Positions 1,091-27,957 of a stretch of 64,000 bases of DNA are shown in pieces (the first letter of the stretch is position 1; each line of letters starts with the position of its first letter). The stretch is from Patescibacteria group bacterium (GTDB lineage: Bacteria; Patescibacteriota; Minisyncoccia; Phycocordibacterales; DATDWN01): NCBI GenBank assembly GCA_040384485.1, contig JAZKJH010000003.1:7556-71555 (forward strand), given 5' to 3'. Made by a program: the position numbers and the translations under genes. The notes beneath the pieces are model-generated. The model worked only from the letters and a program-made list of their open reading frames with translations. It made no database searches and was not told the origin of the DNA.

Positions 1091-4000
1091 TTAGAATTCC
1101 AAATAATCAAACAATCTAGGAATAAAGTTTGGAATAATAGTTCCAGGTTGCTCTACTTCTAACACACACAAGTATGATGAGTCGGTACATAGACCACTCC
1201 AACCAGAGAACTTCCAGAAAGAAGATATCGGATATGCTCGAAGATAGATGACTGTTCCTTCTTCATATATCACTGGACAGTCTGTCGTTCCTGGCTGACA
1301 AGTGATACCCCCTTCGATATCTACACTACCTTTTGGAGTGGCATCGATAACAATGTTGTGTTGAGCTTGAGGGTTTGAAGCTGTACAAGTTCCACTAGGT
1401 GCTCCTCCGTTTAGACCGTTACATACCCATGTTGCACTCGCTCCCGGAGCTGGGAAGGCAGGACTGGCTGACTGAGACCCGGCAGAACAATATGTATCGC
1501 TTCCGTATGAACTAGATCCTACTGGATACGTTCTGTTTGCTGTTCCGCAGAATCCGTTTACAGGAGCAGCAGAAATAGTTACAGAGTAGTTTGTCCATGC
1601 TGAGTTAAGTCCTGGTGCATCTTGAGTTAGGGCTCTGAACGTTTTAGCTCCTGTTGTCGTCCAAGAATATGTAGTGTTTCTGCTTGTTCCTGAACTTACA
1701 TATGATACTCCAGCCGGAAGCCACTCGTCTGCAGTTCCATCCATGTTCCAGTCGACTCCGTATCTTACGGTATCGCTTTGAGCATCCGTAGCTGAGAAAG
1801 TATATGTATAACTTGTATCTGGGTAACCGCTGGTAGAACCAGAAATTGTAGGAACATTTGGAGCTGTGTTACAAGTTGCTGTTGCCGCACAAGCTTGTGA
1901 AGATGCTCCGGAACAGGTTGCTCCTCCGTATGCCGGAGTTGGGTTGGTACAAGTTCTAGTTTGAGAACTTGCAGGTAAACCGCAAGCAGTAGGACATGAT
2001 GCTGGAGACCAAGCTGACCAACCACCATCTAATGACATGTTGAAGTTGGTATCATTGTTTACCCAACCTTGATACAAACCTTGAGTATTGTGAACATAAC
2101 CAGAAATATCGTTACCTGTTGTTGGTGTCGTAAAGTTGGTGTTAGCAATAATAGTAAATGTAGTTGTTCTAGTAATTCCACTTACTGAAGTTCTACAAGA
2201 AACTAGATTTATGTACTCATGACCATAACCATATTGAATTGCGGCCACCCCTTCAGGTAAGTTGCTGCTGTTAAGACAAGTCATTTTATTCTTCTGACTA
2301 TCCCATCCAGTATAGTTGGTATCATAGTACCAAGTTAGATAACCTCTATAGTTACCGATGTTTCCGCCTTGGTAGTTAATGAGGGCATACTCGTGAGTAA
2401 TACTCGCACCTCCACCAATGCCAGTTGGATTAGTTCCAGTTACAACTACATTGTACTGAGTTGAACCATTTGGGTTAACATTTGTTGAACTGATTGTGGT
2501 GCTGACATGTGATGGATAAGCAGAAGCGAAAGTTGCAGAGATAGTTTGACTAGAAGTGATGTTGTTAAAAGTATACGCACTGACTGCTCCAACCGATGAA
2601 CCGTTTACAAGAACATCTGAAATGTAGTACCCAGCAGAAGGTGAAATCGTATATGCTTGACTGCTTCCATATGTTTTAGATGTAGCTCCTGCTGGAGAAA
2701 CAGTTCCACCAGATCCGGCTGAAGCAGTTATGGTGTAAGAGTTTAAAGCACAAGTTGCCGATACTGTACACGCACCAGTTATTGCTCCGGTGGTATAAGT
2801 TGTTCCTGAAAGAGATCCACTACAACCACTAACAGACGGTGTGCCGTAGCCTGTACTCGGAGTTACAGTAAAAGTTGTTGCTGAACCATTATTTACCGAT
2901 CGAGAACTTGGTGATATGGAACAACCCGTTCCCGCTGAAGTTGAGACATTATGTACCAGGCCAAAATTTATATCGAAGTTATCCCAACCGTCTCCAAGGT
3001 TACCGGTGTTCTGTACCGCTCCAGATATATCGTTTGCTGATCCGGGAGAAGTGAAAGCAGGATCAAACCTAACGTTAAAGTTAACTGTTCTACTGTTTCC
3101 AGAATCACTCACAGTACAAGAGTTAAGGTTGATGTATTCCGTACCGTAACCCAATCCATATACAATACCAACTCCCCCTCCACAACTCGCAGTACTACCT
3201 GGTTTTGCTGACCACAAACTACTTGCTCCTGTGTTCCACATTAGATATCCCTTGTAGTTACCTCCATTTCCACCTTGATAGTTAATAAGACCAAGTAAAT
3301 AATATAGATTAGATGCGCCTCCTGGATTAGAGCCGGTAACGGAAACTGTGTATGCAGTAGAGTTGTCAGCAACTATATTTGAAGAACTTATTGTTACACT
3401 ATCCACTGAAGGTGTACATGTGTTATTTGCTGGTGTTGTTGCGGAACAACTACTCCAACCACTCCATGATCCCTGACTGCAAGTTCTGGTTTGCGTACCT
3501 GTTGATGTGCTTCCGCAGGCATTCGCCGCAGAGGTACAACTTTGTGAAGATGCTCCAGAACAAGCTGGGTAATCTACCGTAATAGATGCCGTATCTGATG
3601 CGGCTGTTCCAGCAGCATTAACACAAGTAAAAGTATATGTTGCATTTCCTTGTCCCCATGATAAATTCCCCGAGTCATAACTGGTCGCACCAAGAGGTGC
3701 GTTAGTCCAGTTTCCAGAGTAACTACCTGAACGAGACCACGTACAAGAGGATGCATTTGTTGATGTCATTGTTATACGAAAAGATGTCGGACTCTGTACG
3801 CTAGTTGGCGTTGCAGTTGCATCAACAGTAGAAAGTGGGCACAACGCATTTGATGGAGTTACTCCTGCTGCTCCACTACATGTTCCGTTACACTGTTGTG
3901 TACCTGCGCTACCAGGGTTAGTCATCCCACAAGCGTTTGGCGAAGACGTCGCACCAGTACATGCATTGCCGTATCCCGTAGGGTTTGCTGGTGCAGTAGA

Positions 4001-5243: not shown

Positions 5244-5624
5244 TTAAAAATTTAGAATCTGAACTTTGTCTGCTAGATACTGACCCTCCCCGTCAACTTT
5301 ATAAAAGACAACTACTCGTTGCCCAACTTTTATATCTGAAATAGAAGCTGGTATGTTTTTGTATGCATTACCTTCTTTAATTTGTTGGGTAAAAACAGTA
5401 GTGCTATCCAACAAAGCTATTGTTTGAGTGGAGCCGGCAGTCAGGGTAATAGTTTGTCCTTCCAGACTTACAACATCCGCCATAATAAAATCAGGTAATA
5501 CACCTACATTTTCATTTTGTGAGTTAATATTTTTATTTGAGGAACTTTTTTCATAAAAGTAGAAACAAAAGAGAATCACTAGAAAAACCACCAACAAACC
5601 CAAAAAAGATTTATACTTTTTCAT
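5244..5624 (-). CDS. Small N-terminally membrane-anchored hypothetical protein (126 aa)
   Basis: ORF with N-terminal TM segment, 5 bp upstream of the giant gene 1091..5239 (likely co-transcribed). Conserved 35-bp motif ~25 bp upstream. Confidence 0.5.
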   Translation of the reverse strand: MKKYKSFLGLLVVFLVILFCFYFYEKSSSNKNINSQNENVGVLPDFIMADVVSLEGQTITLTAGSTQTIALLDSTTVFTQQIKEGNAYKNIPASISDIKVGQRVVVFYKVDGEGQYLADKVQILNF

Positions 5625-5647
5625 AATACCTATATTCTACTATACAT

Positions 5648-5683
5648 AAAAATAGAATACACTTTTTGCATTGTGGATAGTAC
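5648..5683 (-). promoter_or_regulatory. Conserved upstream motif AAAATAGAATACAyTTTTTkCAkTTGTGGATAGTrC (copy 1)
   Basis: Near-identical 35-bp sequence (29-30/35) also present at 8305..8340 upstream of the paralogous giant gene. Contains a TATCCACA-like (DnaA-box-like) core and AT-rich -10-like elements. Confidence 0.45.
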
Positions 5684-5747: not shown

Positions 5748-8222
5748 CTAGAATTCCAAATAATCAAACAATCTAGGAATAAAGTTTGGAATAATAGTTC
5801 CAGGTTGCTCTACTTCTAACACACACAAGTATGATGAGTCGGTACATAGACCACTCCAACCAGAGAACTTCCAGAAAGAAGATATCGGATATGCTCGAAG
5901 ATAGATGACTGTTCCTTCTTCATATATCACTGGACAGTCTGTCGTTCCTGGCTGACAAGTGATACCCCCTTCGATATCTACACTACCTTTTGGAGTGGCA
6001 TCGATAACAATGTTGTGTTGAGCTTGAGGGTTTGAAGCTGTACAAGTTCCACTAGGTGCTCCTCCGTTTAGACCGTTACATACCCATGTTGCACTCGCTC
6101 CCGGAGCTGGGAAGGCAGGACTGGCTGACTGAGACCCGGCAGAACAATATGTATCGCTTCCGTATGAACTAGATCCTACTGGATACGTTCTGTTTGCTGT
6201 TCCGCAGAATCCGTTTACAGGAGCAGCAGAAATAGTTACAGAGTAGTTTGTCCATGCTGAGTTAAGTCCTGGTGCATCTTGAGTTAGGGCTCTGAACGTT
6301 TTAGCTCCTGTTGTCGTCCAAGAATATGTAGTGTTTCTGCTTGTTCCTGAACTTACATATGATACTCCAGCCGGAAGCCACTCGTCTGCAGTTCCATCCA
6401 TGTTCCAGTCGACTCCGTATCGGATTTGGTCGCCTTGTGGATCAGTCGCAGTAAATGTGTATGTGTAACTTGTGCTTGGATATCCTGTCGTTGGACCAGA
6501 TATTGTTGGGGCGTTTGCTGATGTATTACATGATGCTAAAGGAGAAGTAGTTTGAGCTGGGCTAGTTGCTCTTGACCCCGACTGCCCACCAGCATTTGAT
6601 GCTCTAACAGTATATGTATATGCAGTTGAACCACTCAAGCCAGTGTCTGAATGAGACGTACCTGTACTGTTATAAATCACTGCTCCATTTCTGTAAACTT
6701 GATAACTTGTCGCTCCAGACACAGAAGACCATGACAAATTGATAGTGCCGGTACCGCAAGTACTCGGTGTTGCGGTAAGAGATGCTGGAATAGCTGGTGG
6801 ATTTGCAGTCCATGTAGCAGTTAGACTTTGACCACCAGATGGCATAGTTGAAGCTAATGCTGGAGACCATCCTGCAAAAATGAATCCGGCCCTAGTCGGG
6901 TTTGCTGGTGCTGAAACAGCAGTACCGTATTGTTGCGTAATAGTTGAAACGGCAGAACCACCTGCTGAGTTGAAGGTTATGTTGTACGAATTTACGGTAC
7001 ATCCAGTTGCTGAATACGTACCAGACAATGAACCGTTTGAACAAGTTCTTGTTTGCGATGAACATACATCAGCAGCTGATGCAGAGTAAGCTGTGTTTGA
7101 ATACCCGTGAGCTACTGTTCCCCATGGACTTGAACAGCTAGCTGGACCTTCTACAGAACAAGATGTTGCTGTGTAGCTTCCTGACATACTTCCATTTGAA
7201 CAAGTTCTAGTTTGAGGTGCACATGATGAGCCGTATGGTACTGATGAAGATTGGTAAGCTGTGTTTGAATACCCGTGAGCTACTGTTCCCCATGGACTTG
7301 AACAGCTAGCTGGACCTTCTACAGAACAAGATGTTGCTGTGTAGCTTCCGGTCAGTGTTCCGCTTGAACATGTTCGTGTTTGGGATGCACAAGAGGAACC
7401 GTATGGGACCGAAGATGTTTGGTATGCAGTGTTTGAGTATCCATGCGTTACTGCTCCCCAAGGGGTACTCGCACAACCTGGGGTACAAGATGTAACTGTG
7501 TAGCTTCCTGACATGCTTCCGTTTGAACAAGTTCTAGTTTGAGGAGAACATGCGCCTGCTGGAGACGACTCAGAGTATGCAGTGTTAGAGTACCCGTGAG
7601 CTACTGTTCCCCATGGACTAGAACAACCACAATAATTAGCGACAGCGGTTGGACCACTAGACGCAGATGGTGACGTGCCACCTGCATTTGAAGCAGTTAT
7701 TGTATATGAGTAGGATCCTCCTATTGTAAGTCCGGTGTCTGAAATAGCTAGAGACCCTCCGTTGTATATAAGTGTGCCGTTTCTATATACTTGGTAACTT
7801 GTTGCTCCTGCCACTGCATTCCATGAAAGATTTATCCAGTTATTACCACAAGAACTGGGTCCTGACCAAAAACCTGTTACCGTTTCCAGTATTGAACCGT
7901 AACAATAAGCCACATCTTGATTCCCTAGGTTTCTAGTATAACCTTCGTACACATATCCGCTTTGAAAATAACAAATGTTTGAAAAGGTATATGGATTTAC
8001 TGTTTGATATTCGGTTGTACCTCCCCCATTATTTGAACACGAAACTCTATACTCGTGGGCAGTTCCGTCCCAACTGCCAGATGTTGGGGTGGCTAAAATG
8101 GTTATGTCAGCATAACCACCGCTTTGACTAACTTGTACCGAACAAACTTCTTCAGCCAAAAGCGTACCTGCCGAAAAAACATATAAAAATGCGAGCGCAA
8201 AAACAAATATAAAATTTTTCAT
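5748..8222 (-). CDS. Giant secreted cysteine-rich surface protein paralog (824 aa) with FN3-like, InlB-B-repeat-like and four tandem ~56-aa Cys-repeats
   Basis: Signal peptide MKNFIFVFALAFLYVFSAGTLLA. FN3-like ...ATSYQVYRNG... modules. GFIFAGWSP InlB-B-like repeat. Four tandem SPWGTVAHGYSNTAY..C..QTRTCSNGS.SGSYTATSC repeats. C-terminus identical to gene 1091..5239. Confidence 0.8.
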   Translation of the reverse strand: MKNFIFVFALAFLYVFSAGTLLAEEVCSVQVSQSGGYADITILATPTSGSWDGTAHEYRVSCSNNGGGTTEYQTVNPYTFSNICYFQSGYVYEGYTRNLGNQDVAYCYGSILETVTGFWSGPSSCGNNWINLSWNAVAGATSYQVYRNGTLIYNGGSLAISDTGLTIGGSYSYTITASNAGGTSPSASSGPTAVANYCGCSSPWGTVAHGYSNTAYSESSPAGACSPQTRTCSNGSMSGSYTVTSCTPGCASTPWGAVTHGYSNTAYQTSSVPYGSSCASQTRTCSSGTLTGSYTATSCSVEGPASCSSPWGTVAHGYSNTAYQSSSVPYGSSCAPQTRTCSNGSMSGSYTATSCSVEGPASCSSPWGTVAHGYSNTAYSASAADVCSSQTRTCSNGSLSGTYSATGCTVNSYNITFNSAGGSAVSTITQQYGTAVSAPANPTRAGFIFAGWSPALASTMPSGGQSLTATWTANPPAIPASLTATPSTCGTGTINLSWSSVSGATSYQVYRNGAVIYNSTGTSHSDTGLSGSTAYTYTVRASNAGGQSGSRATSPAQTTSPLASCNTSANAPTISGPTTGYPSTSYTYTFTATDPQGDQIRYGVDWNMDGTADEWLPAGVSYVSSGTSRNTTYSWTTTGAKTFRALTQDAPGLNSAWTNYSVTISAAPVNGFCGTANRTYPVGSSSYGSDTYCSAGSQSASPAFPAPGASATWVCNGLNGGAPSGTCTASNPQAQHNIVIDATPKGSVDIEGGITCQPGTTDCPVIYEEGTVIYLRAYPISSFWKFSGWSGLCTDSSYLCVLEVEQPGTIIPNFIPRLFDYLEF
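5749..6421. repeat. Copy 2 of ~673-bp direct repeat
   Basis: Same sequence as 1092..1764. Encodes the shared C-terminal domain ...FWKFSGWSGLCTDSSYLCVLEVEQPGTIIPNFIPRLFDYLEF. Confidence 0.8.
7088..7700. repeat. Intragenic tandem repeat, period 168 bp, ~3.7 copies
   Basis: aagctgtgtttgaatacccgtgagctactgttccccatggacttgaacagctagctggaccttctacagaacaagatgttgctgtgtagcttcc recurs at 7088, 7256 and 7424 (diverged), with a fourth at 7577. Encodes the ~56-aa Cys-repeats. Confidence 0.75.
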
Positions 8223-8304
8223 GAGATTATGCGTAGATTTAAATTTAGATTAAACCAAGATGTAATATTCAAACAGCACTAACTATATATAGCTTACTAC
8301 ACAT

Positions 8305-8340
8305 GAAAATAGAATACATTTTTTCAGTTGTGGATAGTGC
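8305..8340 (-). promoter_or_regulatory. Conserved upstream motif (copy 2)
   Basis: gaaaatagaatacattttttcagttgtggatagtgc, ~85 bp upstream of the start of gene 5748..8222. Paralogous to 5648..5683. Confidence 0.45.
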
Positions 8341-16475: not shown

Positions 16476-17078
16476 TTAGTCTGGCAATTTTGAGTAATCT
16501 ATATCACAATAAGGATCTAAAGAACTGTAACTTCCTATTTGGTCATAGAAACTTTTCTGAAACTCCTGCCTATGTTCAGTATTGGAATGCAATTTTTCAA
16601 CAAATTCAACCAGCTCATCACTTTCCTTGAAAAATCTTTCTAAATTACTTCTAGATAATATTTCGGTAGTACACAAAGAAGCTCTGTCGCCCTCCTGAGA
16701 TACAGCAACCACAATATCAGTATTAACAAACGGCTGGGTAAATTCCATCTGCAGAGCCAATGCATACTGCAAAGATACAGCTCTTTTTTTAGCGGAGTTA
16801 GGATACTTTTCAAAAATAGCTAGTTCTACGTCATCCCTTATTCCGTTTGCATTTGCATCCACTCCTACCACAGTTACGTCAGCCCTATCTCCCGGAGGCG
16901 GAGGAAGGTCCTTACCCATCACATCATCGAGTGTAAGTTTAGTTGCGTGAATCTTGGCAACCACAGCATCAGTCTTTTTTTGGTTATTCAATAAAAAACC
17001 TCTATACACCACAACCCCCAAAAACAAAACTAAAATAGTTACTCCCGCCCACTTCGCTATCTTTTTAAAAAGATTCAT
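16476..17078 (-). CDS. Hypothetical membrane-anchored protein (200 aa)
   Basis: N-terminal TM. Start overlaps the downstream gene by a few nt, so likely co-transcribed with 13472..16474. Confidence 0.45.
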   Translation of the reverse strand: MNLFKKIAKWAGVTILVLFLGVVVYRGFLLNNQKKTDAVVAKIHATKLTLDDVMGKDLPPPPGDRADVTVVGVDANANGIRDDVELAIFEKYPNSAKKRAVSLQYALALQMEFTQPFVNTDIVVAVSQEGDRASLCTTEILSRSNLERFFKESDELVEFVEKLHSNTEHRQEFQKSFYDQIGSYSSLDPYCDIDYSKLPD

Positions 17079-17135
17079 ATAGAAATATTATTACCCAAAT
17101 TATACCAACCCTATCCCACCATTCACATCAAAATT

Positions 17136-17846
17136 GTGGATAACTATCCAAGGGCATCCCTTGGATATAGGTATACTATTATTATGGAGAGAAGATTTGA
17201 ATTCTCAATTGGAGAATTTTATCACGTCTACAATAGGGGCAACAACAAATCCACAATATTCTTTGATGATAAGGACCGGGCCCGTTTCCAAAAGTTACTT
17301 TATATATGTAACGGCTCCAAACCTGTTGTTTTCAAAAATGTCCAAGGGGTGCCCTTGGATAAAATAGATGTGGGAGAAAAACTGGTTGATATTGGCTTAT
17401 ATTGCCTTATGCCGAACCACTTTCATCTTTTATTGCGAGAAATAAAAGAAGGCGGTATTAGTCGTTTCATGGAAAAAATGTCCACCGCATATTCAATGTA
17501 TTTTAATAAAAAATACAATAGAACTGGTAAATTGTTTGAGGGAAGGTTCCAAGCATCTCACATACAGGATGATCGACATCTTAAATATCTGTTCTGCTAT
17601 ATACACCTCAATCCAGTTAAAATAATCAATCTTAATTGGAGAACTGCAGAAATAAAAAGCGCAAACGAAACACAAAAATATTTAGACCAGTATACTTACT
17701 CAAGTTTTATGGATTACAAATCAGTTTCTCGAAAAGAAGATATTATTCTTAATAAATCATCCTTTCCGGAGTACTTTTCCGAACCGAGAGAATTTGAGAA
17801 GTTTATAGATGAGTGGCTCACCATCCAAGGGATGCCCTTGGATTAA
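17136..17846 (+). CDS. HUH Y1 transposase, IS200-like / REP-associated tyrosine transposase
   Basis: FYHVYNRGNNK...CLMPNHFHLLL (HuH motif) typical of Y1 transposases (PF01797-like). The more likely start is MERRFEF at ~17184. Confidence 0.8.
   Translation: MDNYPRASLGYRYTIIMERRFEFSIGEFYHVYNRGNNKSTIFFDDKDRARFQKLLYICNGSKPVVFKNVQGVPLDKIDVGEKLVDIGLYCLMPNHFHLLLREIKEGGISRFMEKMSTAYSMYFNKKYNRTGKLFEGRFQASHIQDDRHLKYLFCYIHLNPVKIINLNWRTAEIKSANETQKYLDQYTYSSFMDYKSVSRKEDIILNKSSFPEYFSEPREFEKFIDEWLTIQGMPLD
17148..17164. repeat. REP-like palindrome CCAAGGGCATCCCTTGG (copy 1, 5' of transposase)
   Basis: Perfect 7-3-7 palindrome. Five copies lie within 1.6 kb. Confidence 0.8.
17342..17358. repeat. REP-like palindrome copy 2 (CCAAGGGGTGCCCTTGG), inside transposase CDS
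   Basis: Encodes ..QGVPLDK.. within the ORF. Confidence 0.7.
17825..17841. repeat. REP-like palindrome copy 3 (CCAAGGGATGCCCTTGG), at transposase C-terminus
   Basis: Encodes ..IQGMPLD* at the end of the ORF. Confidence 0.7.
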
Positions 17847-17877
17847 ATAACAGCATATAATTAGGTCACAAATCTAT

Positions 17878-17894
17878 CCAAGGGCATCCCTTGG
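17878..17894. repeat. REP-like palindrome copy 4 (3' of transposase)
   Basis: CCAAGGGCATCCCTTGG, identical to copy 1. Confidence 0.8.
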
Positions 17895-17940
17895 ACTGTT
17901 AGGTGAGACCTATGTAGAGTTATCCACAGGTTAAGGTAAC

Positions 17941-17969
17941 AAAAAACCCAGGAGGACCTGGGTTTTTTT
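17941..17969. terminator. Bidirectional rho-independent terminator
   Basis: aaaaaa-CCCAGGAGGACCTGGG-ttttttt between convergent genes. Confidence 0.7.
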
Positions 17970-17988
17970 AGTTTAAGAGAGGTGTGGT

Positions 17989-18681
17989 TTATTCGAGTTC
18001 AGATAGGAGGAAAGTAAGATTTGGGTCGTTTGGGATAGCCTTCAAGCCTTCATTCAATGCTGCCTTTGCCTTGGTTATATTCTTCCCCACATACTGGTAG
18101 ACCTCCGCTAGCTGTGCGTACAGGTATGACTCTCCTTTAGCTCTAGCGATAGCTCTTCTGTAGTATGTGTCTGACATTCCTACATTTTTCATATGAAGTC
18201 CGTATAGGTTTCCGATGTTACCCAATGCAACAAAGTTCTTTGTATCTAGCTTGCTAGCATACTCCCAAGAAATAATAGCTCCGTCATAGTCCCCTGCGCT
18301 CTTCTGGTATGAACCCAAGTCTATCCAAGCTGCTACCACTTCTGGTTTTGTTTTTAGGAAATCCTGTAATTCTTTTATTTTTGGAGCAGCTGAAGATATT
18401 TCTTGTGCAGAAACATTTACCGCAAGAGATGACTTAACCAAAACTCTGTCTAGGTTTGGAATAGGTTTTGGAACCGAAGTTGGTGAATCTATTTTTTGTA
18501 TCTCGTACTCTACCCCTGATGGAAGAGTTACTTTGTTACCTGTTGTAGTTGCTACTGCTTCGTTATTCCCAATACCTTCCTCTACACCTCGTGAACGTCC
18601 GTCCAGAAGCACATATAGCCCAACCAGGACCAATATTGCTACTGCACTTAGTATTATTTTGTTTGTTTTTGTCATTTCCAT
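17989..18681 (-). CDS. TPR-repeat protein with N-terminal membrane anchor
   Basis: Several 34-aa TPR-like units (W..LG..Y...G.Y..A...Y..A) in the C-terminal half. N-terminal TM. Confidence 0.6.
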   Translation of the reverse strand: MEMTKTNKIILSAVAILVLVGLYVLLDGRSRGVEEGIGNNEAVATTTGNKVTLPSGVEYEIQKIDSPTSVPKPIPNLDRVLVKSSLAVNVSAQEISSAAPKIKELQDFLKTKPEVVAAWIDLGSYQKSAGDYDGAIISWEYASKLDTKNFVALGNIGNLYGLHMKNVGMSDTYYRRAIARAKGESYLYAQLAEVYQYVGKNITKAKAALNEGLKAIPNDPNLTFLLSELE

Positions 18682-18736
18682 AGTGAGAAAAGTATATCAT
18701 ACTCCCAGTATCTTTTAAACCTCTCTCATCCAAAAT

Positions 18737-18753
18737 CCAAGGGCATCCCTTGG
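18737..18753. repeat. REP-like palindrome copy 5 (solo, ~0.8 kb from the element)
   Basis: CCAAGGGCATCCCTTGG in the intergenic region upstream of the TPR gene. Confidence 0.75.
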
Positions 18754-18858
18754 ATAGTGGGAACGGAGGTTTAGATAAAACAAAAACCACCCTTGCGGGT
18801 GGTTTTTGTTGATTAACTTAATCTGTCTTGAAATATATTGCTATATCTCAAAGATAGG

Positions 18859-21800
18859 TTAGTTAGATCGTGTCCAAGTCTGAACTGGGAATGCAGAGTT
18901 GCTTGGGAATCCAGGCAATCCGTATCCGTTTGTCCAATCAAGGTTACTCTGAGTAGCTGTTGTAGCTTCAGCAGTTGTTGTTGAGAATGGTGACCAGATA
19001 ATGTTATCTAGATCTCCATCGTTTGCCTCAATTCCAGCTACTGTTCCCATCAAGTTTGCAAGTGATGGATACGCTGTATCAGCTTTTAGAGCGATACTGA
19101 TTGTGTCAGTAACAGATGCTCCGTCAACTGCAGTCGCAGCTCTCAATACGAATGTTTTCGTACTGTTTGCTGAAATGATCTGAGCTTGTGATGTACCACT
19201 AGCTAGGATTTCCAACAATGTACCTCCGTTTCCAGAAGCATCAGCAGCAACTGTGTTGAATGCAACACCGTCTCCGTAAAGTGTAAATCCAGATACTGCA
19301 CCTCCTGATGTCGCAGTTGTGAATGAGAATTTCTGGAATACGATGTCTCTACTTGATGGGTTCTTTACAGTGAATTTGTATAGATCTCCACCAGCAGATA
19401 GTGTTCCACCGTTGCTTGTTACAGCAACCTCAGGAACTGTTCTGAAGATTCTTAGACCGTTTGTTGAAACGTCTGAAGTTGTTCCGCCAGAAACTGTTGT
19501 CTGAGAGTCAGCACCTAATCCGTAGTTACCATTGATTCCGTTGTTACCACCATCGTAGTTAACAGTTAGGAATGCTCCTGGTGTTCCTTGGTTTACAGTC
19601 TGAGCTGTTAGATCACCTTTTACTACTATAACTATTGACTCACCTGCTGCTATTCTAGGAGCAGGAGTTAGCATTGTTGATGTAGCTAGGTCAGATACAG
19701 ATCCGCCGAATTGAGCAGTTCCGATTTGAGCACCGTTGTACCACAATGTAACTTTCTGATCTACTAGGTCTGCTGGAGAGTTTGAAGCAACGTTACCCAA
19801 TTCTAGGGCAATTTGTTTCAAGTCAACAGCTTCTGTAGCACCAGCTGTGAATCGTAGTCTAGCCAATTCAACTCCTGTAGTTCCTGCTTGCGCAAGTTTG
19901 TACAATAGAGCTGAGTCGTTAGAAACTGTAAATGTTCCAGTTGTTGCAGAAGTCATTGTTTGACCAGAGTTTGCAACTGTAACCTCAGTTACTGTCAAAC
20001 CAGATGTAACACCTGTTGCACCTGTGTATGAAGCATCGAAGTCAGTCATACTCCATGTAACTGAACCTGAAGTTGCGCCTGATGCTAGAGAACATTTCAA
20101 TGACAAAGTCTTTGAAGTTCCTTTTGCAACTACGAAACCACCGTTGTTAAATGTGAATGTGTTTGAACCAGAAGCTACTGTAATGTTTGTTGCGTCTGTT
20201 AGGTTTGTCGCACCATCGTATAGCGCACAGTTTGAAAGCTGATTAGCTGTGATAGTTGAAAGACCTAGTTCAGCAATAAAGCTTGATAGTCTAACGTCCT
20301 CTCCTGACTGACCTGCGTCAAGAACGTATCTTGCGAACTCAAAGTTTTGAGCACCCGCGATAACAGCTCTTGCTGAAGGTTGTGAAGATTGAGTGATAGT
20401 CAATGCACCTCCTCTAACTGTCATCAAGTTTCCTGTGATAACTGAGTTAAATGATGAAAGACTAACTGTGTCTCCTGTTGAAGAACCTGTTACACCTGTC
20501 CACTGAGTAGAAGGTGTTGTAGAAGCTTGAACTGTGTCTCCTGTTACGAAAGTAGAGTTTAGTCTACCAACAAGTCTAACAACAGTTGTTCCTACTGGGA
20601 AAGTTACAGAATCAGTAAATGTTACTGTTCCTGCAGCACCAGATGTTACTACACCGTCAACTGGACCAGCTAGCACAACGCCATTCTGGTTAACCAATTT
20701 GATGTTAGTAATAGCATCTACTGTGTTTCCGTTTGCGAACAAGTTGAATACCATTTGGTCAACAGTAACAGCTTCACCTCTCATTTTAACCTCAAATCCT
20801 CCCAAAGGTTGATCTGAAACTAGAACAGCGATGTTTTGAGCACCAACTGTGTTAGATGATGAAATTGTACTTGCTGAACCAGCTGTTATTGTAACAACAC
20901 CTTGTGCATCGAATGCAGGTGTGTTTGTTACTGTAAAGCCTGTTCCAGATGAAAGACTGATTCCGTAACCATATGTCTCACCTGTTACATAGATATCAGT
21001 TGCTTTGTAGATATCGAATGCAACTGTTCTGTTTGTACCACCAACGATATCTCCTTTGATAGAGATTTCTTTAGATACACCCTCTGCGATCATAAGACCA
21101 CCAGAGAATACTGCAGAATAGTATTTACCATCTGAAGAAACTGTTGTTGGGTAAGCAGTACCATCTACATAAACCTTGATGTTTGCAAGGTCAGAAGCTG
21201 ATGCTGAACCTGACTGGTTCCATCTGATAGACCATACTTTGATATCCTCACCTGAACCTGCATCAACTTTAACTGATGAGAAGGTGTGGTTTGTTGTTCC
21301 GATTTCTTTACTAGATGACACGTTTGGATCAAGAGCTCCTCTAGAACCTTGTGCAGTTCCTAATGAAAGAGTGTTGTTCAAAGTGTGGCTAGCTCCTGTG
21401 ATAGGAAGAGAACCAGAAACTGTAGCTGAAGTGTTAACTGAAACTAGTTTCAAACTAACAACCTGTCCAGCATATGAAGTCAAATCTGCCTTCATGTTAC
21501 CAGCGATTGTGTAAGTTCGAGTTGTCCCTGCTGGGATAACCCAAGACTCACCTACGATAGCTTGACCGTTTGAGTTAAGTGTTTTCGCAACACCGATTTG
21601 CATACCGTCACTGTTCAATAGAACAATTCCAGCGAATGCTGCATCGTCTCCTAGGCCTCCTCTTTCAACTGTAACAGAGTTAACTGTAACATCTGAAGCA
21701 CCGGCTGTAAGAGTGAAAGTTGTGAAAGGAACTCTAGCTGACCCTTTTGGAGCCAATGAGTTTGTTGGTTGTGAACCAGCTGACACTGAAACTGATCCTG

Positions 21801-22272
21801 CTACTGGTGTAGTTGGAGTAGTTGGTGTTGTTGGTGTTGTACCACCCATTGAGTTCAACTTCGCTCTTGTGATCGCACCTACGTAACCAGCTGCTGGTGT
21901 GATTCCATGTTTTACTTGGAATTTTACAACTGCTGCTCTTGTAGCTAGACCAAAGTATGAAGTTTCCATACCAGGTGAGCCAGCTCCTGTAGCTGCAACT
22001 CTTGTATCAGCACTCATGTTAAGAACTTTTTGCAAGTTCATAACATCTGTACTTCTACTACCTACTGTTAAGTTTGTATTGAATGTGTATCCAGTTGAAG
22101 CTGAAGTACCACCACTCAATGCTGCCAACTGTGCTGACAATGAAGCGATCATTGCTTGTAGTTCTTCCATAGTTGCTGCACTAGTTGCACTTGGTGCAAC
22201 GAATGACAACGCCATAGCGAAACCTACAAATCCAGCGACGAATTTTGCAGTTTTTGATTTTGTTAAATTCAT
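18859..22272 (-). CDS. Large surface protein (~1137 aa) with N-terminal coiled segment and PG_binding_1-like peptidoglycan-binding domain, followed by long beta-rich Thr/Ser/Gly-rich region (S-layer-like)
   Basis: Start refined to MNLTKSKTAKF (signal peptide) at 22272. ...VGSRSTDVMNLQKVLN...YFGLATRAAVVKFQVKHGITPAAGYVGAITRAKL matches the PG-binding domain pattern. Confidence 0.8.
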   Translation of the reverse strand: MNLTKSKTAKFVAGFVGFAMALSFVAPSATSAATMEELQAMIASLSAQLAALSGGTSASTGYTFNTNLTVGSRSTDVMNLQKVLNMSADTRVAATGAGSPGMETSYFGLATRAAVVKFQVKHGITPAAGYVGAITRAKLNSMGGTTPTTPTTPTTPVAGSVSVSAGSQPTNSLAPKGSARVPFTTFTLTAGASDVTVNSVTVERGGLGDDAAFAGIVLLNSDGMQIGVAKTLNSNGQAIVGESWVIPAGTTRTYTIAGNMKADLTSYAGQVVSLKLVSVNTSATVSGSLPITGASHTLNNTLSLGTAQGSRGALDPNVSSSKEIGTTNHTFSSVKVDAGSGEDIKVWSIRWNQSGSASASDLANIKVYVDGTAYPTTVSSDGKYYSAVFSGGLMIAEGVSKEISIKGDIVGGTNRTVAFDIYKATDIYVTGETYGYGISLSSGTGFTVTNTPAFDAQGVVTITAGSASTISSSNTVGAQNIAVLVSDQPLGGFEVKMRGEAVTVDQMVFNLFANGNTVDAITNIKLVNQNGVVLAGPVDGVVTSGAAGTVTFTDSVTFPVGTTVVRLVGRLNSTFVTGDTVQASTTPSTQWTGVTGSSTGDTVSLSSFNSVITGNLMTVRGGALTITQSSQPSARAVIAGAQNFEFARYVLDAGQSGEDVRLSSFIAELGLSTITANQLSNCALYDGATNLTDATNITVASGSNTFTFNNGGFVVAKGTSKTLSLKCSLASGATSGSVTWSMTDFDASYTGATGVTSGLTVTEVTVANSGQTMTSATTGTFTVSNDSALLYKLAQAGTTGVELARLRFTAGATEAVDLKQIALELGNVASNSPADLVDQKVTLWYNGAQIGTAQFGGSVSDLATSTMLTPAPRIAAGESIVIVVKGDLTAQTVNQGTPGAFLTVNYDGGNNGINGNYGLGADSQTTVSGGTTSDVSTNGLRIFRTVPEVAVTSNGGTLSAGGDLYKFTVKNPSSRDIVFQKFSFTTATSGGAVSGFTLYGDGVAFNTVAADASGNGGTLLEILASGTSQAQIISANSTKTFVLRAATAVDGASVTDTISIALKADTAYPSLANLMGTVAGIEANDGDLDNIIWSPFSTTTAEATTATQSNLDWTNGYGLPGFPSNSAFPVQTWTRSN

Positions 22273-22460
22273 ATATATGTTTTTAATAAGAAATGATCTC
22301 TCTAAAGTTATTAATAAAATGTGTTTAGAGAAAACCATTTGTGAAAACTATTAACTAATTACCTTAATAATTTCTGATACGGCCACTTCAATATTCTTCG
22401 AACTTTCATTCGAAGAATATTCCGTGACCGCATCACATGCAATTTTTTTGTGCTCATATT

Positions 22461-22764
22461 TTGTTCACATCTCCACATGGTGGCAGAGCCGAACAACTCG
22501 ACACGAGTACAAAAAAATAGATGGCGTGTTGAGTGGGAATTTCTAGAGTGTCTAAAATGTAGGAATAAAGCGGTAAGTCGGAAAACTAACATTAGCGGCT
22601 TTTTATGCCGCTGTGTATAAATCCATATTTTGTTGTCAAAGAACTGTCTGTTCTGAAAGATATAAAAGCTATACAGAACTTATGCACATAGCCCTCGCGG
22701 GCTATGACACATATATAAGTATATAGTCTCTATATCAGACTTTCAAATAACAGCGTGTGGATAA
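22461..22764. promoter_or_regulatory. Cluster of DnaA-box matches (TTATNCACA) in a 620-bp hairpin-rich intergenic region
   Basis: Perfect matches: TGTGTATAA at 22612-22620 (rc TTATACACA), TTATGCACA at 22680-22688, TGTGGATAA at 22756-22764 (rc TTATCCACA). One-mismatch TTGTTCACA at 22461-22469. Several perfect hairpins lie in the same region (22392-22420, 22689-22708, 22771-22797). Confidence 0.4.
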
Positions 22765-22951
22765 CTGGTTTTTTGAGGTTTTAGGACCTCAAAAAGTTGT
22801 ACTACCCAACCTACCAATATTAGACAAAAATGAGCAAAAAGTCAATCCAACAGACGAGAAATATGCTCGCTCTGACAGGGTGATTTTTGCCAAGAATTTT
22901 TGCCTCAATACCATAGACGGGAATAATGTAGAAATATTACTCAAAATAGTT

Positions 22952-23755
22952 TTAACTCAATGAATACTTGCTCCATCTTCTTACTCCTGCTCGTTTTAGA
23001 ATTCCACTAGCTATAAGAGAGTTGAGTTCTCGCTGCACTGTTTTTTCACTACAGTCCTTTATAACTTCAGTAATGTCCTTTATCATTACTTCTTTCTTTT
23101 TTCTTATTAAGTTCAAAATTGTAGTTTGTCTATCTGTTCTTCTAAATGCCTCATTTGTAGAGCTGACAACTGGTCTGTCTTTTACTGTGGTTGGAGATGA
23201 ATATCGGTTAAAATTTGAAACCTCAATTTCTGATTTTTGGATCGTGCTTGGGTTAGCAAAAACTACAGAATTAGTTGTCTGTGGGATTTGTGGGACTGTA
23301 GCTTTCTCAGTTGATTCAAAAATATTTTTTACCGCATTTTCCCCTGAAAAATTTTGTGAGTTTTGAGCCCCTTCTAGAATAGTGATCAGGTTATGAAACT
23401 CTGTGTTTATAATAGAAAAATTCATCTCTGAAATAAGTCCGCCTCTGTATGCAACTTCTAGAAAGGAAGATGCTTCTAAGACACGAGTTTTCACACCGTA
23501 TATAAAATCATTTTTACCTCCGTCTCTTTCCCCTTTTGAACGAATCATATAAGACAATAGTTCTGTAACTTTTTGTCGCAAAACATTTCGCATTGGTTCA
23601 GTTTCTGGAAACAAGTTTGTGATCATGTAGACCGCCGAAGCTAGTTTTTCTGTCTTTTTGAACGCAGAAACAAACACAGGTTCAGTGCCAAAAAAAGATA
23701 TTATTTCCTTGCTCTTTTGAGATACTTCGATACTTGAGTTGTTGTTTGGATTCAT
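22952..23755 (-). CDS. Putative transcriptional regulator with C-terminal winged-helix DNA-binding domain
   Basis: C-terminal ...TTILNLIRKKKEVMIKDITEVIKDCSEKTVQRELNSLIASGILKRAGVRRWSKYSL is wHTH/DeoR-like. The N-terminal domain is unassigned. Confidence 0.5.
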   Translation of the reverse strand: MNPNNNSSIEVSQKSKEIISFFGTEPVFVSAFKKTEKLASAVYMITNLFPETEPMRNVLRQKVTELLSYMIRSKGERDGGKNDFIYGVKTRVLEASSFLEVAYRGGLISEMNFSIINTEFHNLITILEGAQNSQNFSGENAVKNIFESTEKATVPQIPQTTNSVVFANPSTIQKSEIEVSNFNRYSSPTTVKDRPVVSSTNEAFRRTDRQTTILNLIRKKKEVMIKDITEVIKDCSEKTVQRELNSLIASGILKRAGVRRWSKYSLS

Positions 23756-24224
23756 TGTTTTTGTAGTTTAAACTGACTGTTAGGAGTCCGTAAAATGTCC
23801 TTATTTGTAGCGGTATGTCTTATATTTGTCTTTATTATGTCTTATATAATAACAAATGTCTTTGATAAAGTCAAGGCCAGTTGTAAGACAAAATAAAACA
23901 GGTTGTCTGTCTCATACCTGCAGCAAGCAGTCGAGGTATGAGGCTGACAACATCAGGACTGTTTTGTTGGTGTGGGAAGTGGCTCCGCCACCACTACTTT
24001 ACGCCTCTCTTGTTCATAGCTAAGACTATGAACGATTCGTGGCTTCCAATAAAGCACGAAACAAAACATTGAATTAGTTAGACTCCTACTGAACATGAAC
24101 TTGCTATTTCTAATCCCCTATTTTGTTCGTGGTTGTGTGCGTTTTTGTGTTAAAATATATAGCGATACAACTCAATTATTAGTTAACTTTACTGGTATAA
24201 AATAGTACTGGTTCTAGAACTCGG

Positions 24225-26471
24225 ATGGCACAAAAAAAGAAAGAAAAGATAGAGAAACCGAAAAGGAAATCTAAGGAAATTATTGATGAAAATTCTGGAG
24301 GTGATTATCTCAAAAAAGAAACTTTAAACGCGATTATTGCGGTGGTGTTTTTCGTGATTGGAATGTTCCTTTTGTTGTCCGCTGGACCTATCGCAAAAGG
24401 TGGAAAAGCCGGTGAATGGGTATACTATATTTTTCACGATAAAATGTTTGGAGTTGGATATTATCTACTACCTATTATTTTGTTTATTTTGTGTGTTTCT
24501 TTTTTCAGATCCCTTCAAAAAAAGTTGGCGAAAACTCACAGCTTTGGTGGACTACTCTTGTTTATTTCTTGCTTGGCCCTGATCGATATTTCATCACCAG
24601 GAAATGGAGGAATTGTCGGTGGTTTTATTTCCAAACCACTCATTAGTATGTTTGATACATATGTCAGTGTGATCGCACTTATCGCACTTTCACTCATCTC
24701 TCTTATTGTTATTTTTGACGCTCCAATACGGTTCAACTTTGTTAGAAGATGGTTCGGTAAAAAAGAAGAAGGCGAACTTTTGGACGAAGAAGATGATGGT
24801 CCGGAACTAATAATTTCCAACGACGGGAAAAATAAAATGACTCTTAAAGAGGCTGAGAAAATGGCAGAAGAAAAAGAGCCAATTATAAAAAAACCCGAGG
24901 AACCTAAAAAAGATAAAGATGAGTTTGGTATTGCCCCACTACTTTCGAACGGGAAGGAGTTCGTCCCCCCACCACTTTCTTTGCTTGAACAGGACAAAGG
25001 TAAGCCTGGAGTTGGAGACATCAAAGCAAACTCAAATATAATAAAAAGAACACTTCAAAACTTTGGCATCAGCGTAGAGATGGATGAAATATCTATTGGA
25101 CCGTCTATTACTAGATACGCCCTAAAACCTGCAGAAGGAGTAAAGTTGGCTAAAATAGTTGGACTCCAAAACGACCTCTCTCTAGCTCTGGCTGCCCACC
25201 CTATTCGTATAGAGGCTCCTATTCCAGGTAAGTCATTAGTGGGTATCGAGATACCGAACAGTATAAAAACAACCGTGGGACTTGGAACCCTGCTTGGATC
25301 AAACGACTTCCAAAACTCAGAAAAAGCTCTGCTTGTTTCTCTGGGCAAAGGAATCTCGGGAATGTCGTACTTTGCTGACCTAGCCAAATCCCCTCACATG
25401 CTTATCGCTGGTTCTACTGGGTCTGGAAAGTCTGTTACTATTCACGCCCTCATCACTTCCCTTCTATATAGAAACTCTCCGGACAACTTGAAGTTCATTA
25501 TGGTGGACCCAAAAAGAGTTGAGCTTACTCTATATAACAAAATCCCACATCTACTAACACCTGTTATCACAGATGCAAAGAAGGCTATCTTGGCACTGAA
25601 ATGGGCAGCAAAAGAGATGGATCGTCGATATGATGTTCTACAAACCGAAGGTCTGCAAAATATTTCTTCGTATCACAAAAATGTTCTGGAGCCTGAACTA
25701 AAGAAACGCAAAGGTAAACCTGCAGATGAGGACGCTAAGCCTATCGAGACTATGCCTTATATAGTAGTAGTTATCGACGAGTTGGCAGATATTATGCAAG
25801 CCTATCCTCGAGAACTTGAGTCAGCTATTGTACGCCTTGCTCAGATGTCCCGAGCTGTTGGAATACACCTCATGCTTTCTACTCAGAGGCCTTCCGTAAA
25901 CGTTATTACCGGTCTTATCAAAGCCAACATCCCTACCCGTATCGCCCTGCAGGTGTCTTCCCAGATAGACTCACGAACTATCTTGGATATGTCAGGTGCT
26001 GAAAAACTACTGGGTGCTGGAGATATGTTGTATTTGTCAGGAGAAATGTCTCAACCTCAGCGTATTCAGTCTGCGTTTATCCGCGAGACAGAAGTGAAAG
26101 CAGTTGTTAAGTATCTAGTAGACAGCTATGCGAGTGAAATACCGAGCGAAATAAACCTAACTGGTGAGAATCAGAAAAATAGTATATTTGAAGCTGCTTT
26201 GGGTGACGATAAAATGGAGGACGATGACGACCTATACGAGGATGCGAAACAAACTGTTATGCAGGCTGGTAAAGCTTCTACTTCTTATCTACAAAGAAAA
26301 CTTGGTGTTGGTTATGCCAGAGCAGCTAGACTTATAGATATGCTTGAAGAAAGAGGTGTGATAGGTCCTGGCTCTGGAGCAAAACCTAGAGAAGTGCTTA
26401 TGGGCGGTGCGAGTGACGCCCCGACAGAAAGTGGTGACTCGGAGGAAAATAACACACCTCTTAGTAGCTAA
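24225..26471 (+). CDS. ftsK: DNA translocase FtsK/SpoIIIE
   Basis: N-terminal TM segments, charged linker, Walker A GSTGSGKS, VVVIDELADIM Walker B, C-terminal gamma-like domain. Confidence 0.95.
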   Translation: MAQKKKEKIEKPKRKSKEIIDENSGGDYLKKETLNAIIAVVFFVIGMFLLLSAGPIAKGGKAGEWVYYIFHDKMFGVGYYLLPIILFILCVSFFRSLQKKLAKTHSFGGLLLFISCLALIDISSPGNGGIVGGFISKPLISMFDTYVSVIALIALSLISLIVIFDAPIRFNFVRRWFGKKEEGELLDEEDDGPELIISNDGKNKMTLKEAEKMAEEKEPIIKKPEEPKKDKDEFGIAPLLSNGKEFVPPPLSLLEQDKGKPGVGDIKANSNIIKRTLQNFGISVEMDEISIGPSITRYALKPAEGVKLAKIVGLQNDLSLALAAHPIRIEAPIPGKSLVGIEIPNSIKTTVGLGTLLGSNDFQNSEKALLVSLGKGISGMSYFADLAKSPHMLIAGSTGSGKSVTIHALITSLLYRNSPDNLKFIMVDPKRVELTLYNKIPHLLTPVITDAKKAILALKWAAKEMDRRYDVLQTEGLQNISSYHKNVLEPELKKRKGKPADEDAKPIETMPYIVVVIDELADIMQAYPRELESAIVRLAQMSRAVGIHLMLSTQRPSVNVITGLIKANIPTRIALQVSSQIDSRTILDMSGAEKLLGAGDMLYLSGEMSQPQRIQSAFIRETEVKAVVKYLVDSYASEIPSEINLTGENQKNSIFEAALGDDKMEDDDDLYEDAKQTVMQAGKASTSYLQRKLGVGYARAARLIDMLEERGVIGPGSGAKPREVLMGGASDAPTESGDSEENNTPLSS

Positions 26472-26892: not shown

Positions 26893-27957
26893 ATGAAGAA
26901 AAAAGCACCGAAGGAAGCAAAAGGAGAAATAGGAACAGTGAATGTAGAGAATACTCTACGAGAAATCAGAACGAAGTTCGGTGATGATTCTATTATGATG
27001 CTTGGCGACAAGCCTCATGTAGATGTAAATGCAATCTCAACTGGTTCAATAGGTTTGGATGCAGCACTCGGAGTTGGTGGTTTGCCGAGAGGGAGAATAG
27101 TGGAAATATTTGGACCAGAATCATCTGGTAAAACTACCCTGTCTCTACATGTTGTAGCAGAAGCACAAAAGTCAGGAGGTATCTGTGCATTCATAGATGC
27201 AGAGCATGCCATGGACCCAGAGTACGCGCAGAGACTTGGTGTGAAAATTGATCAGCTACTTATCTCACAACCCGACAACGGTGAACAGGCTCTAGAAATA
27301 GTAGAATCTCTTGTTCGTTCAGGAAAAATAGATGTGATAGTTATCGACTCAGTAGCAGCTCTGACTCCGAAAGATGAAATTGAAGGAGATATGGGAGCTC
27401 ACCATGTTGGAAAACAAGCTCGCCTTATGTCTCAAGCCCTAAGAAAGCTTACGGCTATTGTTGCTCGTTCAAAAACTTTGGTTATTTTTATAAACCAAAT
27501 CCGTATGCAGATTGGTGTTATGTTTGGAAACCCAGAAACAACTCCTGGTGGAAAAGCTCTCAAGTTCTACACATCAGTTAGAATTGATATTCGACGAATT
27601 GCCCAAATCAAGAAAGGCGAAGAAATAATGGGAGGAAGAATCCGAGTAAAGGTTGTAAAAAACAAAGTGGCTGCTCCTTTCAAACAAACCGAGTTTGACC
27701 TAATGTATAACGAAGGTATCTCAAGAGAGGGTGAAATAATCGCCTTGGGAGAAAAAATGGGAATCATAAGCAAATCTGGAACAAGCTACTCATACGGTGA
27801 GGAAAAACTAGGACGAGGATATGATGCCACAAGGCAGTTCCTAAGAGCCGAGAAGAAAGTTGCAGATAAAATACTGAAAGAAATTAGAGAAGCTTTGAAG
27901 AAAAATGGAGGATCTGTGGTAGCTAGTACTGGAGGAGAAAGCGAAAGCGCAGAATAA
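26893..27957 (+). CDS. recA: Recombinase RecA
   Basis: [17 protein letters not shown] Walker A, ...[22 protein letters not shown]..., and the rest of the RecA core. Confidence 0.95.

Follow-up and report, generated by a model that had tools for sequence, protein, structure and literature searches.

The region described here (22273-22951) is the long intergenic segment upstream of a gene for an S-layer-like surface protein, in a 64-kb stretch of DNA, hereafter the window, from a metagenome-assembled genome (MAG) of Patescibacteria (Paceibacterota-type). With both genes on the minus strand, it lies 3' of a regulator gene and 5' of that for the surface protein, an assignment that follows from the gene order conserved in relatives. 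The surface protein (1137 aa) has a signal peptide, a coiled N-terminal 'ELQAMIASLSAQLAAL' segment and a Pfam PG_binding_1 domain; from the signal peptide, the PG-binding domain and the position of the gene we infer that it forms an S-layer. Its start codon had been placed at 22272 in a first-pass annotation of the window, and relatives bear this out, since the ATG, the signal peptide and the sequence 5' of the ATG are all conserved; a longer version of the open reading frame (ORF), extending to 22338, finds no conservation in relatives. The regulator, encoded immediately 5' of the surface-protein gene, carries a DeoR-like winged helix-turn-helix (wHTH) domain at its C terminus. It is identical to database entry P0001, 'DeoR family transcriptional regulator [Patescibacteria group bacterium]', and a sequence search of the PDB with this protein gave 0 matches; about 270 homologues of it are known.

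The locus was compared with those of 29 relatives, comprising 25 loci (L002-L026) and four closer ones (L027, L028, L029 and L031). Their HTH proteins are 28-66% identical to that of the window, and 52-66% identical in the closest lineages; the MAGs that encode them are labelled Nomurabacteria, Zambryskibacteria, Paceibacterota or Parcubacteria, and some are labelled Saccharibacteria. In every relative the order of genes is RecA, a small Glucodextran_B-like protein, FtsK and then, divergently, the HTH protein, the intergenic region and the orthologous surface protein. The genes and the elements of the region are as follows.

18859-22272, minus strand: S-layer-like surface-protein gene (Pfam PG_binding_1), with orthologues directly 3' of the HTH gene in all relatives
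22291-22374, minus strand: two AT-rich 3' hairpins just 5' of the start codon (alignment columns 364-394 and 398-447; compensatory changes at 402/443 and 408/438)
22375-22435, minus strand: long hairpin containing the perfect 13-bp palindrome 22390-22421 (columns 300-360; compensatory changes at 303/357, 319/340, 323/336 and 326/333)
22436-22523, minus strand: long hairpin containing a one-mismatch DnaA box (columns 211-299; compensatory changes at 223/285, 227/281, 229/279, 238/273 and 248/261)
22594-22612, minus strand: terminator-like hairpin AGCGGC-loop-GCCGCU, from a terminator scan; the stem is kept by G-C to A-U exchange (GCGAC/GTCGC)
22612-22620, minus strand: box 3, TTATACACA, a match to the DnaA-box consensus TTATNCACA
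22632-22644, minus strand: boxA-like element GTTCTTTGACAAC, at about +68 in the leader, predicted unpaired and near-invariant
22680-22688, plus strand: box 2, TTATGCACA (TGTGCATAA on the transcribed strand), a match to TTATNCACA
22681-22712, minus strand: 5'-terminal stem-loop with the core CATAGCCC-GCGA-GGGCUAUG and a GNRA loop, found in single-sequence and alignment folds
22718-22746, minus strand: predicted promoter P_main, with -35 TTGAAA (22746-22741), 17-nt spacer and -10 TATACT (22723-22718); consensus scan, 10/12 matches
22756-22764, minus strand: box 1, TTATCCACA, a perfect match to the DnaA-box consensus
22770-22795, minus strand: small hairpin TTTTTGAGG-loop-CCTCAAAAA between P_up and box 1, its stem kept with varying sequence in relatives
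22817-22845, minus strand: predicted promoter P_up, with -35 TTGACT (22845-22840), 17-nt spacer and -10 TAATAT (22822-22817); consensus scan
22952-23755, minus strand: wHTH (DeoR-like) regulator gene, 267 aa (Pfam HTH_DeoR, residues 209-256)
24225-26471, plus strand: ftsK, opposite in strand to the HTH and surface-protein genes
26893-27957, plus strand: recA, likewise opposite in strand to these two genes

What first drew attention to the region was its cluster of DnaA boxes. The three TTATNCACA matches lie exactly where the first-pass annotation had put them, and the one-mismatch box that it gave at 22461-22469 is present as well (TTGTTCACA, plus strand). The whole window holds 6 matches to TTATNCACA, compared with 2.85 expected. 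Dinucleotide-preserving shuffling of 22273-22951, repeated 20,000 times, gave 0.05 boxes on average, so that the earlier estimate of about 0.03 was of the right order of magnitude; 21 shuffles contained two or more boxes. The cluster is non-random, because not one of the 20,000 shuffles reached three. The three hairpins noticed alongside the boxes exist too, with coordinates that had to be moved by 1-3 nt: AATATTCTTCGAA/TTCGAAGAATATT occupies 22390-22421, with 13-bp arms and a 6-nt loop; CATAGCCC-TCGC-GGGCTATG occupies 22687-22706; and TTTTGAGG...CCTCAAAA occupies 22771-22794.

Box 1 is the member of the cluster that is conserved. It is found with at most one mismatch, on the same strand and 3' of the HTH gene, in 28 of the 29 relatives and is perfect in 23; these comprise 24 of the 25 loci L002-L026 (19 perfect) and all four of the closer relatives (each perfect). 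The sole exception is L005, where CTATCCCCA, with two mismatches, occupies the homologous place. The variants among relatives, TTGTCCACA, TTTTCCACA and CTATCCACA, are changed at positions 1 and 3 only. A TATAAT-like -10 hexamer always lies 28-33 nt 3' of the box (32 nt in the window, measured to the -10 of P_main), and a TTGxxx hexamer lies 17 nt before that -10. The flanks of box 1 are otherwise unalignable between distant lineages, yet the spacing to the -10 is fixed. In one clade an imperfect inverted half-site (TGTGTAATA) is found 5 nt 5' of the box.

The hexamers associated with box 1 belong to a pair of tandem promoters. Both P_main and P_up have the 16-18-nt spacing of sigma-70-type promoters, with hexamers that are kept in relatives. 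The P_main hexamers TTGAAA and TATA(A/C)T are invariant in alignment A3, and the sequence predicts a transcript start near 22711. Relative to this start, box 1 would extend from about -52 to -44 (centre near -48), and the box lies about 6-9 nt 5' of the -35. The -35 of P_up is invariant in the six closest lineages (HTH proteins 52-66% identical) and its -10 reads TAATAT or TAGTAT; the same arrangement is seen in L002, L006, L009 and L010. Across the six lineages the hexamers of both promoters are invariant or nearly so, while the surrounding DNA diverges. Box 1 overlaps the predicted start of P_up in a compact clade, where only 4-5 nt separate the end of the upstream -10 from the box. The small hairpin between P_up and box 1 retains its stem as GAGG/CCTC, GGGG/CCCC, GGGA/TCCC or GTGG/CCAC, and is followed on the sense strand by an invariant A-tract (22769-22774). 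This hairpin (22770-22795) is not a canonical terminator, as it is followed by a T-run on neither strand.

A transcript from P_main would carry a leader of about 440 nt (minus strand, from about 22711 to the ATG at 22272), and the properties of this segment are those of a structured RNA. Its minimum free energy is -130.3 kcal/mol, compared with -87 ± 5 kcal/mol in shuffles (z = -8.4). The leaders of relatives give z values from about -1.2 to -12, and every leader longer than 300 nt scores -2.9 or lower; the short leader of L013 (z = -1.2) is no better than the controls, seven segments of the window with z from -1.2 to +1.5. The window and five closer relatives (HTH proteins 52-66% identical) can be aligned across the whole region, and the consensus that RNAalifold derives from these six sequences contains 117 pairs, 15 of them with compensatory double changes. 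Compared with L012, the window is 88-94% identical over the greater part of the leader and about 70% identical within the HTH coding DNA. Identity reaches 92-94% in the AT-rich 3' segment (22291-22374), whereas the segment 22529-22619, which holds box 3, is the least conserved of the leader at 54%. The 5'-terminal stem-loop begins about 3 nt after the predicted start. Its alignment-column pairs 12/21 and 13/20 change on both sides, and L031 keeps a 5' hairpin with an unrelated sequence, ATTGTTT/AAACAAT. In being long, stable and conserved, and in starting with a stem-loop, the leader has the structural hallmarks of an S-layer-type 5' untranslated region (UTR). The first-pass annotation had not recognised the hairpins as parts of this long structured mRNA leader.

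A coding function for the leader receives no support. There is no conserved ORF in it among the aligned relatives, and the small ORFs that can be drawn there (one of 77 aa on the minus strand; two, of 56 aa and 68 aa, on the plus strand) are unconserved, with L028 and L029 lacking any ORF of at least 30 aa. Rfam at gathering thresholds returns only tRNAs from the whole window, and at permissive thresholds yields nothing credible in 22200-24300, where the best match, psRNA6, reaches 21.7 bits and would need 60 to pass the gathering score. In the consensus fold an invariant AUAUG that follows the boxA-like element, within ATATGGATT, pairs with a CAUAU just 5' of the start codon (22274-22278). 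All five of these pairs (alignment A4, columns 90-94 with 459-463) are invariant, so that covariation speaks neither for nor against them; the modelled long-range pairing, if real, could couple the boxA region to translation initiation.

Seen against this leader, the other boxes take on a different meaning. Box 2 supplies the 3' strand at the base of the 5' stem-loop. L012, L027, L028 and L029 retain it, but it is lost in L031/L032, where the RNA hairpin remains; the conservation of box 2 is better explained by RNA structure than by a DNA-binding site, because those lineages keep the hairpin without the box. Box 3 is absent at the aligned position from all five of the other lineages, is thus unique to this genome, and is judged to be incidental. 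The one-mismatch box reads AGTGAACAA in L027 and L029 and is not kept. The cluster is one functional element accompanied by matches that lie within structured RNA, of which boxes 2 and 3 and the one-mismatch box are by-products. The region as a whole is very probably a control region with tandem promoters, followed by the structured 5' leader of a major surface-protein gene.

Two readings of the cluster that the first-pass annotation had put forward can be weighed against this one. In the first, the region is a replication origin without an adjacent dnaA, at which DnaA would oligomerise on the three boxes and unwind AT-rich DNA nearby. Three boxes within 150 bp, one of them perfect, are far above chance, the intergenic region is long, and a stretch of only 20% GC is present at 22250-22350. 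Relatives keep a single box, however, with box 3 unique to this genome and box 2 lost in L031, and the AT-rich stretch, separated from the boxes by over 260 nt, is conserved as paired leader RNA beside the start codon. Tandem AT-rich repeats were not found in 22273-22951, and the GC content of the box-bearing part, 34-36%, resembles that of the adjacent coding DNA, which further counts against an origin. So do the lack of DnaA or DnaN domains in all ORFs of at least 300 aa in the window, and the GC skew, which is negative on both sides of about 22.5 kb and whose sole local rise tracks the plus-strand ftsK-recA genes. A similar density of perfect boxes occurs in other intergenic DNA, both around the transposase-like element of the window (17135 and 17920) and in relatives (three boxes in 1.7 kb in L012), an outcome that the first-pass annotation had itself named as counting against its proposal. 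With one conserved box, no unwinding element, no dnaA or dnaN in the window and no skew switch, an origin here is extremely improbable.

In the second reading the cluster would be a DnaA-titration locus, like E. coli datA or the DnaA-box clusters of B. subtilis, that sequesters DnaA and so times initiation. Titration of DnaA by chromosomal boxes is a documented concept (PMC12371093), and three close matches to the consensus, one of the highest-affinity type, would be in keeping with such a role. Against it, the cluster is unconserved, and 28 relatives have just one box, which keeps a fixed place in the promoter. Boxes 2 and 3 fall within the transcribed, structured leader, where it is the RNA structure and not the box sequence that is conserved, and these extra boxes are weaker variants. 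One box per promoter suits a transcription operator better than a sink. A titrating cluster is therefore unsupported by the relatives, and we regard it as very unlikely, if slightly less so than an origin.

The leader contains one further element of interest. Within the 5' half of the leader, conservation is highest in the boxA-like GTTCTTTGACAAC, which is unpaired in the consensus fold; its TTGACAA, with the ATATGGATT that follows, is invariant in alignment A3. A motif of the same class occurs at +60 to +125 in all long leaders, and also in the 23S rRNA leaders of L010 (GTTCGTTGACAAT) and L004 (GAACTTTAACAAC). GTTCTTTGACA agrees at 10 of 11 positions with the published BoxA consensus GYTCTTTAANA, which is gamma-proteobacterial; BoxA is also found 5' of some protein-coding genes (PMC5725501). 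By its likeness to this motif, the element probably loads NusB/NusE, so that RNA polymerase would cross the 440-nt leader protected from Rho termination, as in rRNA operons. The TTGACA within it was considered as the -35 of a third promoter and rejected, for no conserved -10 follows it.

The rRNA leaders just mentioned were found in the same neighbourhood of two relatives; the window itself contains no rRNA operon of this genome. In L004 (16860-17090) and L010 (16860-17201), a 23S rRNA gene starts about 6.4 kb 3' of the HTH gene and is preceded by a leader with boxA-like motifs; a 16S gene was not detected between the HTH gene and the 23S gene of either locus. The idea that an rRNA operon lies directly downstream of the promoter in relatives was accordingly dropped, as there is no 16S gene there and the 23S gene of these two loci is that far away. 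In L010, TTTTCCACA is also present 22 nt 5' of the -35 of the putative rRNA promoter.

Box 1 is not the only such site near genes for the cell envelope. All five TGTGGATA cores in the window are intergenic, and three of them, together with box 1, precede genes for signal-peptide or membrane-anchored proteins. The first-pass annotation had correctly placed such cores upstream of the giant surface-protein genes (5672 and 8329) and at both ends of an IS200-like ORF (17135 and 17921). The three additional promoter-type boxes of the window are these.

Box 5679: 5' of 5244-5624 and of the gene for a 1382-aa protein, 1091-5239
Box 8336: 5' of the gene for an 824-aa protein, 5748-8222
Box 17142: 5' of 16476-17078 and of the gene for a 1000-aa beta-helix/LTD protein

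Each has a -10-like hexamer 27-32 nt on its 3' side. In six lineages a box is found 31-33 nt before an extended -10 (TGnGATAAT), 5' of a small gene that comes after the S-layer gene, and further boxes of the promoter type are present in L006 (13509) and L018 (8144). About 16 of the 19 non-orthologous perfect boxes are intergenic, while 83% of the examined sequence is ORF.

Two of the giant surface-protein genes of the window show additional features of their own. A 51-nt motif (5631-5681 and 8288-8338, 82% identical) lies 5' of both; read on the gene strand, it ends with CTATCCACA, and its -10-like hexamer lies 27-32 nt further 3'. The start codon follows so closely that these mRNAs may have almost no leader. 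The 3' ends of the two genes (1091-5239 and 5748-8222) share a direct repeat of 300 nt (1092-1391 and 5749-6048) that is 100% identical and suggests recent gene conversion or cassette exchange between them, and both genes contain internal repeats of 123-168 nt.

The same 9-mer also occurs beside mobile repeats. The IS200-like ORF (17136-17846) matches the Y1_Tnp model and that of the REP-associated tyrosine transposases (RAYT; REP, repetitive extragenic palindrome), and it is flanked by ATCCAAGGGCATCCCTTGGAT REP-like palindromes and by inverted TTATCCACA 9-mers at 17135 and 17920. Features of this kind extend over 17079-17990 and 18733-18754 of the window. Units made of a palindrome and a box recur in L012 (8143, 9081 and 9805), L013 (9143-9193) and L018 (7428-8152); some stand directly 5' of box-type promoters and some have no promoter downstream. 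These flanks and units are what one would expect if the boxes were remnants or targets of REP/RAYT repeats in intergenic DNA, with no regulatory role. At the S-layer promoter, however, box 1 is not flanked by a REP palindrome of the RAYT-associated family, and the 28-33-nt spacing to the -10 stays constant despite unalignable flanks, which points to selection on promoter function. REP units could equally well insert beside boxes that were already there. That the boxes are no more than such remnants or targets is very improbable.

The identity of the protein that binds box 1 is less clear-cut. Box 1 is a match to the DnaA-box consensus close to a promoter, and known DnaA boxes tolerate changes at positions 1 and 3. 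DnaA ranks first among single candidates, because the 9-mer is that of the highest-affinity DnaA box and varies only at these tolerated positions; as an assignment made from sequence it is tentative, with a chance somewhat below even. The earlier proposal of a DnaA-regulated control region thus holds in its second half: a control region it is, whereas DnaA as the binder is possible only, on the strength of an operator that matches the highest-affinity box.

The principal alternative is that box 1 is the operator of a lineage-specific factor, most likely the adjacent wHTH protein, and that its identity to a DnaA box is coincidental. The gene for the regulator always adjoins the box-bearing promoter, and the genes served encode envelope proteins. 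Position 5 is an invariant C in all conserved sites, though DnaA accepts any base there, and the orientation of the site and its spacing to the -10 are fixed, as with a dedicated activator. The inverted half-site TGTGTAATA of one clade is also what a dimeric regulator would call for. In most lineages, including this one, the site is nevertheless asymmetric, which is unusual for wHTH dimers, and it is exactly the universal high-affinity DnaA box, with variants at DnaA-tolerated positions only. Moreover, an identical 9-mer is found in lineages among which the identity of the HTH proteins is only about 30%. The likelihood that such a factor, rather than DnaA, recognises box 1 is close to an even chance.

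Whichever protein is responsible, the arrangement of the control region and leader suggests how expression of the surface protein might be organised. P_up and P_main would act in tandem on the minus strand, with the small hairpin, the A-tract and box 1 between them. Box 1 would serve as an operator whose bound protein determines how active P_main is, most likely as an activator site at which that protein contacts RNA polymerase. In relatives with the compact layout it may block P_up as well, whose predicted start overlaps the box there. Transcription from about 22711 would then produce the leader of roughly 440 nt, which is predicted to fold into the conserved series of hairpins. The GNRA stem-loop at its 5' terminus probably shields the mRNA from 5'-end-dependent decay, like S-layer leaders in other bacteria, and together with the downstream hairpins it would stabilise the message. 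It is possible, though on balance doubtful, that DnaA is a promoter-proximal regulator of envelope genes in Paceibacterota-type Patescibacteria, coupling the surface protein to the replication cycle, in combination with a BoxA/Nus-protected leader of about 440 nt. We know of no protein-coding gene for which a DnaA-type operator combined with an rRNA-style BoxA leader has been described.

Several observations weigh against this layout. Chance is a poor explanation for two extra TTATNCACA matches so near to box 1, within 150 bp (about 0.001), and position 5, where DnaA is tolerant, is the only one at which boxes 2 and 3 depart from box 1; box 2, in addition, is present in five of the six close lineages. 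Since the extra boxes are improbable by chance and differ at position 5 only, boxes 2 and 3 might act as weak cooperative DnaA sites. The small hairpin between P_up and box 1 is left without a role, and the start sites, as well as the choice between P_up and P_main, are predictions. At position 8 the boxA-like element has a G where the gamma-proteobacterial consensus has an A. The examined loci all surround the S-layer gene, so that the impression of an envelope regulon comes from a biased sample. Finally, a paralogue of the S-layer-like protein (56757-59000, 747 aa) has the same layout of signal peptide, coiled segment and PG-binding domain, and its gene has no TTATCCACA box upstream and only a short leader; surface-protein genes therefore do not all use the box.

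Some features elsewhere in the window deserve mention in their own right. Two inverted copies of a GC-rich structured element, about 165 nt long and 76% identical, occupy 23891-24053 and 47025-47187, one between the HTH gene and ftsK and the other between folA and thyA. The hairpins of the element are kept via compensatory changes (z = -6.0 for copy 1, plus strand). None of the relatives has it, not even L012, and Rfam gives no match to it; it could be an unknown RNA or some small mobile element. The class I aminoacyl-tRNA synthetase encoded at 39847-43269 (1140 aa), with tRNA-synt_1 and Anticodon_1 domains, contains a histidine-phosphatase insertion (His_Phos_1, residues 497-662, E = 1e-29) in the middle of its catalytic domain. 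ARAGORN assigns a tRNA-Leu (GAG) to 59226-59310, where the Rfam tRNA model is silent at the gathering threshold.

To our knowledge, almost nothing is known of gene regulation in Patescibacteria (also called CPR). These are mostly uncultured epibionts with very small genomes and few regulators, in which surface proteins mediate contact with the host. The present comparison brings out three cis-elements conserved across a wide clade: an operator identical to the DnaA box and fixed in position at envelope-gene promoters, tandem promoters, and a large leader RNA with a boxA-like site. If DnaA binds box 1, the status of replication would be linked directly to the supply of surface protein in a minimal cell; if it does not, the wHTH protein encoded alongside would be a candidate for the master regulator of the cell surface. 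The region also illustrates, for the scanning of genomes, that in organisms of this kind clusters of DnaA boxes outside oriC can consist of promoter operators and by-products of RNA structure.

A strong promoter with a structured leader before a surface-layer gene is an arrangement of a known kind. What appears to be new is an operator identical to a DnaA box at a fixed promoter position, found across Paceibacterota and common to the promoters of several envelope genes. How large and how well conserved the leader RNA is, and the presence of a boxA-like element before such a gene, likewise appear to be new. We found no paper that combines TTATCCACA with Patescibacteria, and none on Patescibacteria S-layer promoters.

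The resemblance to replication origins, to datA and to the B. subtilis clusters is confined to consensus 9-mers grouped in one intergenic region. Here the grouping is unconserved, two of the three boxes are inside a transcribed structured RNA, and the locus has no unwinding element, no dnaA or dnaN in the window and no skew switch. With the REP/RAYT system (REPtron) the region has in common that, elsewhere in the window and in relatives, the 9-mer abuts palindromes and is inverted around a Y1-transposase gene; box 1, in contrast, is not beside such a palindrome.

Parallels exist for the individual parts of the control region. In E. coli a TTATCCACA box lies between dnaAp1 and dnaAp2, and DnaA acts as an activator or repressor at promoters (PMC8203912). 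A single perfect TTATCCACA between two tandem sigma-70 promoters is shared by the two systems. Here, however, the gene is one for a surface protein rather than dnaA or a replication or nucleotide gene, binding by DnaA is hypothetical, and the box is fixed just 5' of the downstream -35 and recurs at several envelope-gene promoters. The boxA-like element resembles the BoxA/Nus sites of rRNA leaders, and of mRNA leaders such as that of E. coli suhB, in being a short, unpaired, conserved motif 60-125 nt after a strong promoter, in a long untranslated RNA, with the same class of motif in the 23S rRNA leaders of relatives. It differs in the G for A at position 8, and the effect of Nus factors, whether antitermination or repression, is putative; the kind of protein-coding gene found here is not among the BoxA-associated genes noted in PMC5725501.

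A further counterpart is found among the S-layer genes of Lactobacillus (slpA) and of other S-layer-bearing bacteria, which have two promoters and a long, structured 5' UTR that is credited with a long mRNA half-life (PMC3666127). Tandem promoters, a long structured 5' UTR and a surface protein expected to be very abundant are common to both. The S-layer nature of the protein encoded in this Patescibacteria MAG is deduced from its sequence and position, and the leader, at about 440 nt, is much longer, with at least seven conserved hairpins and a boxA-like element.

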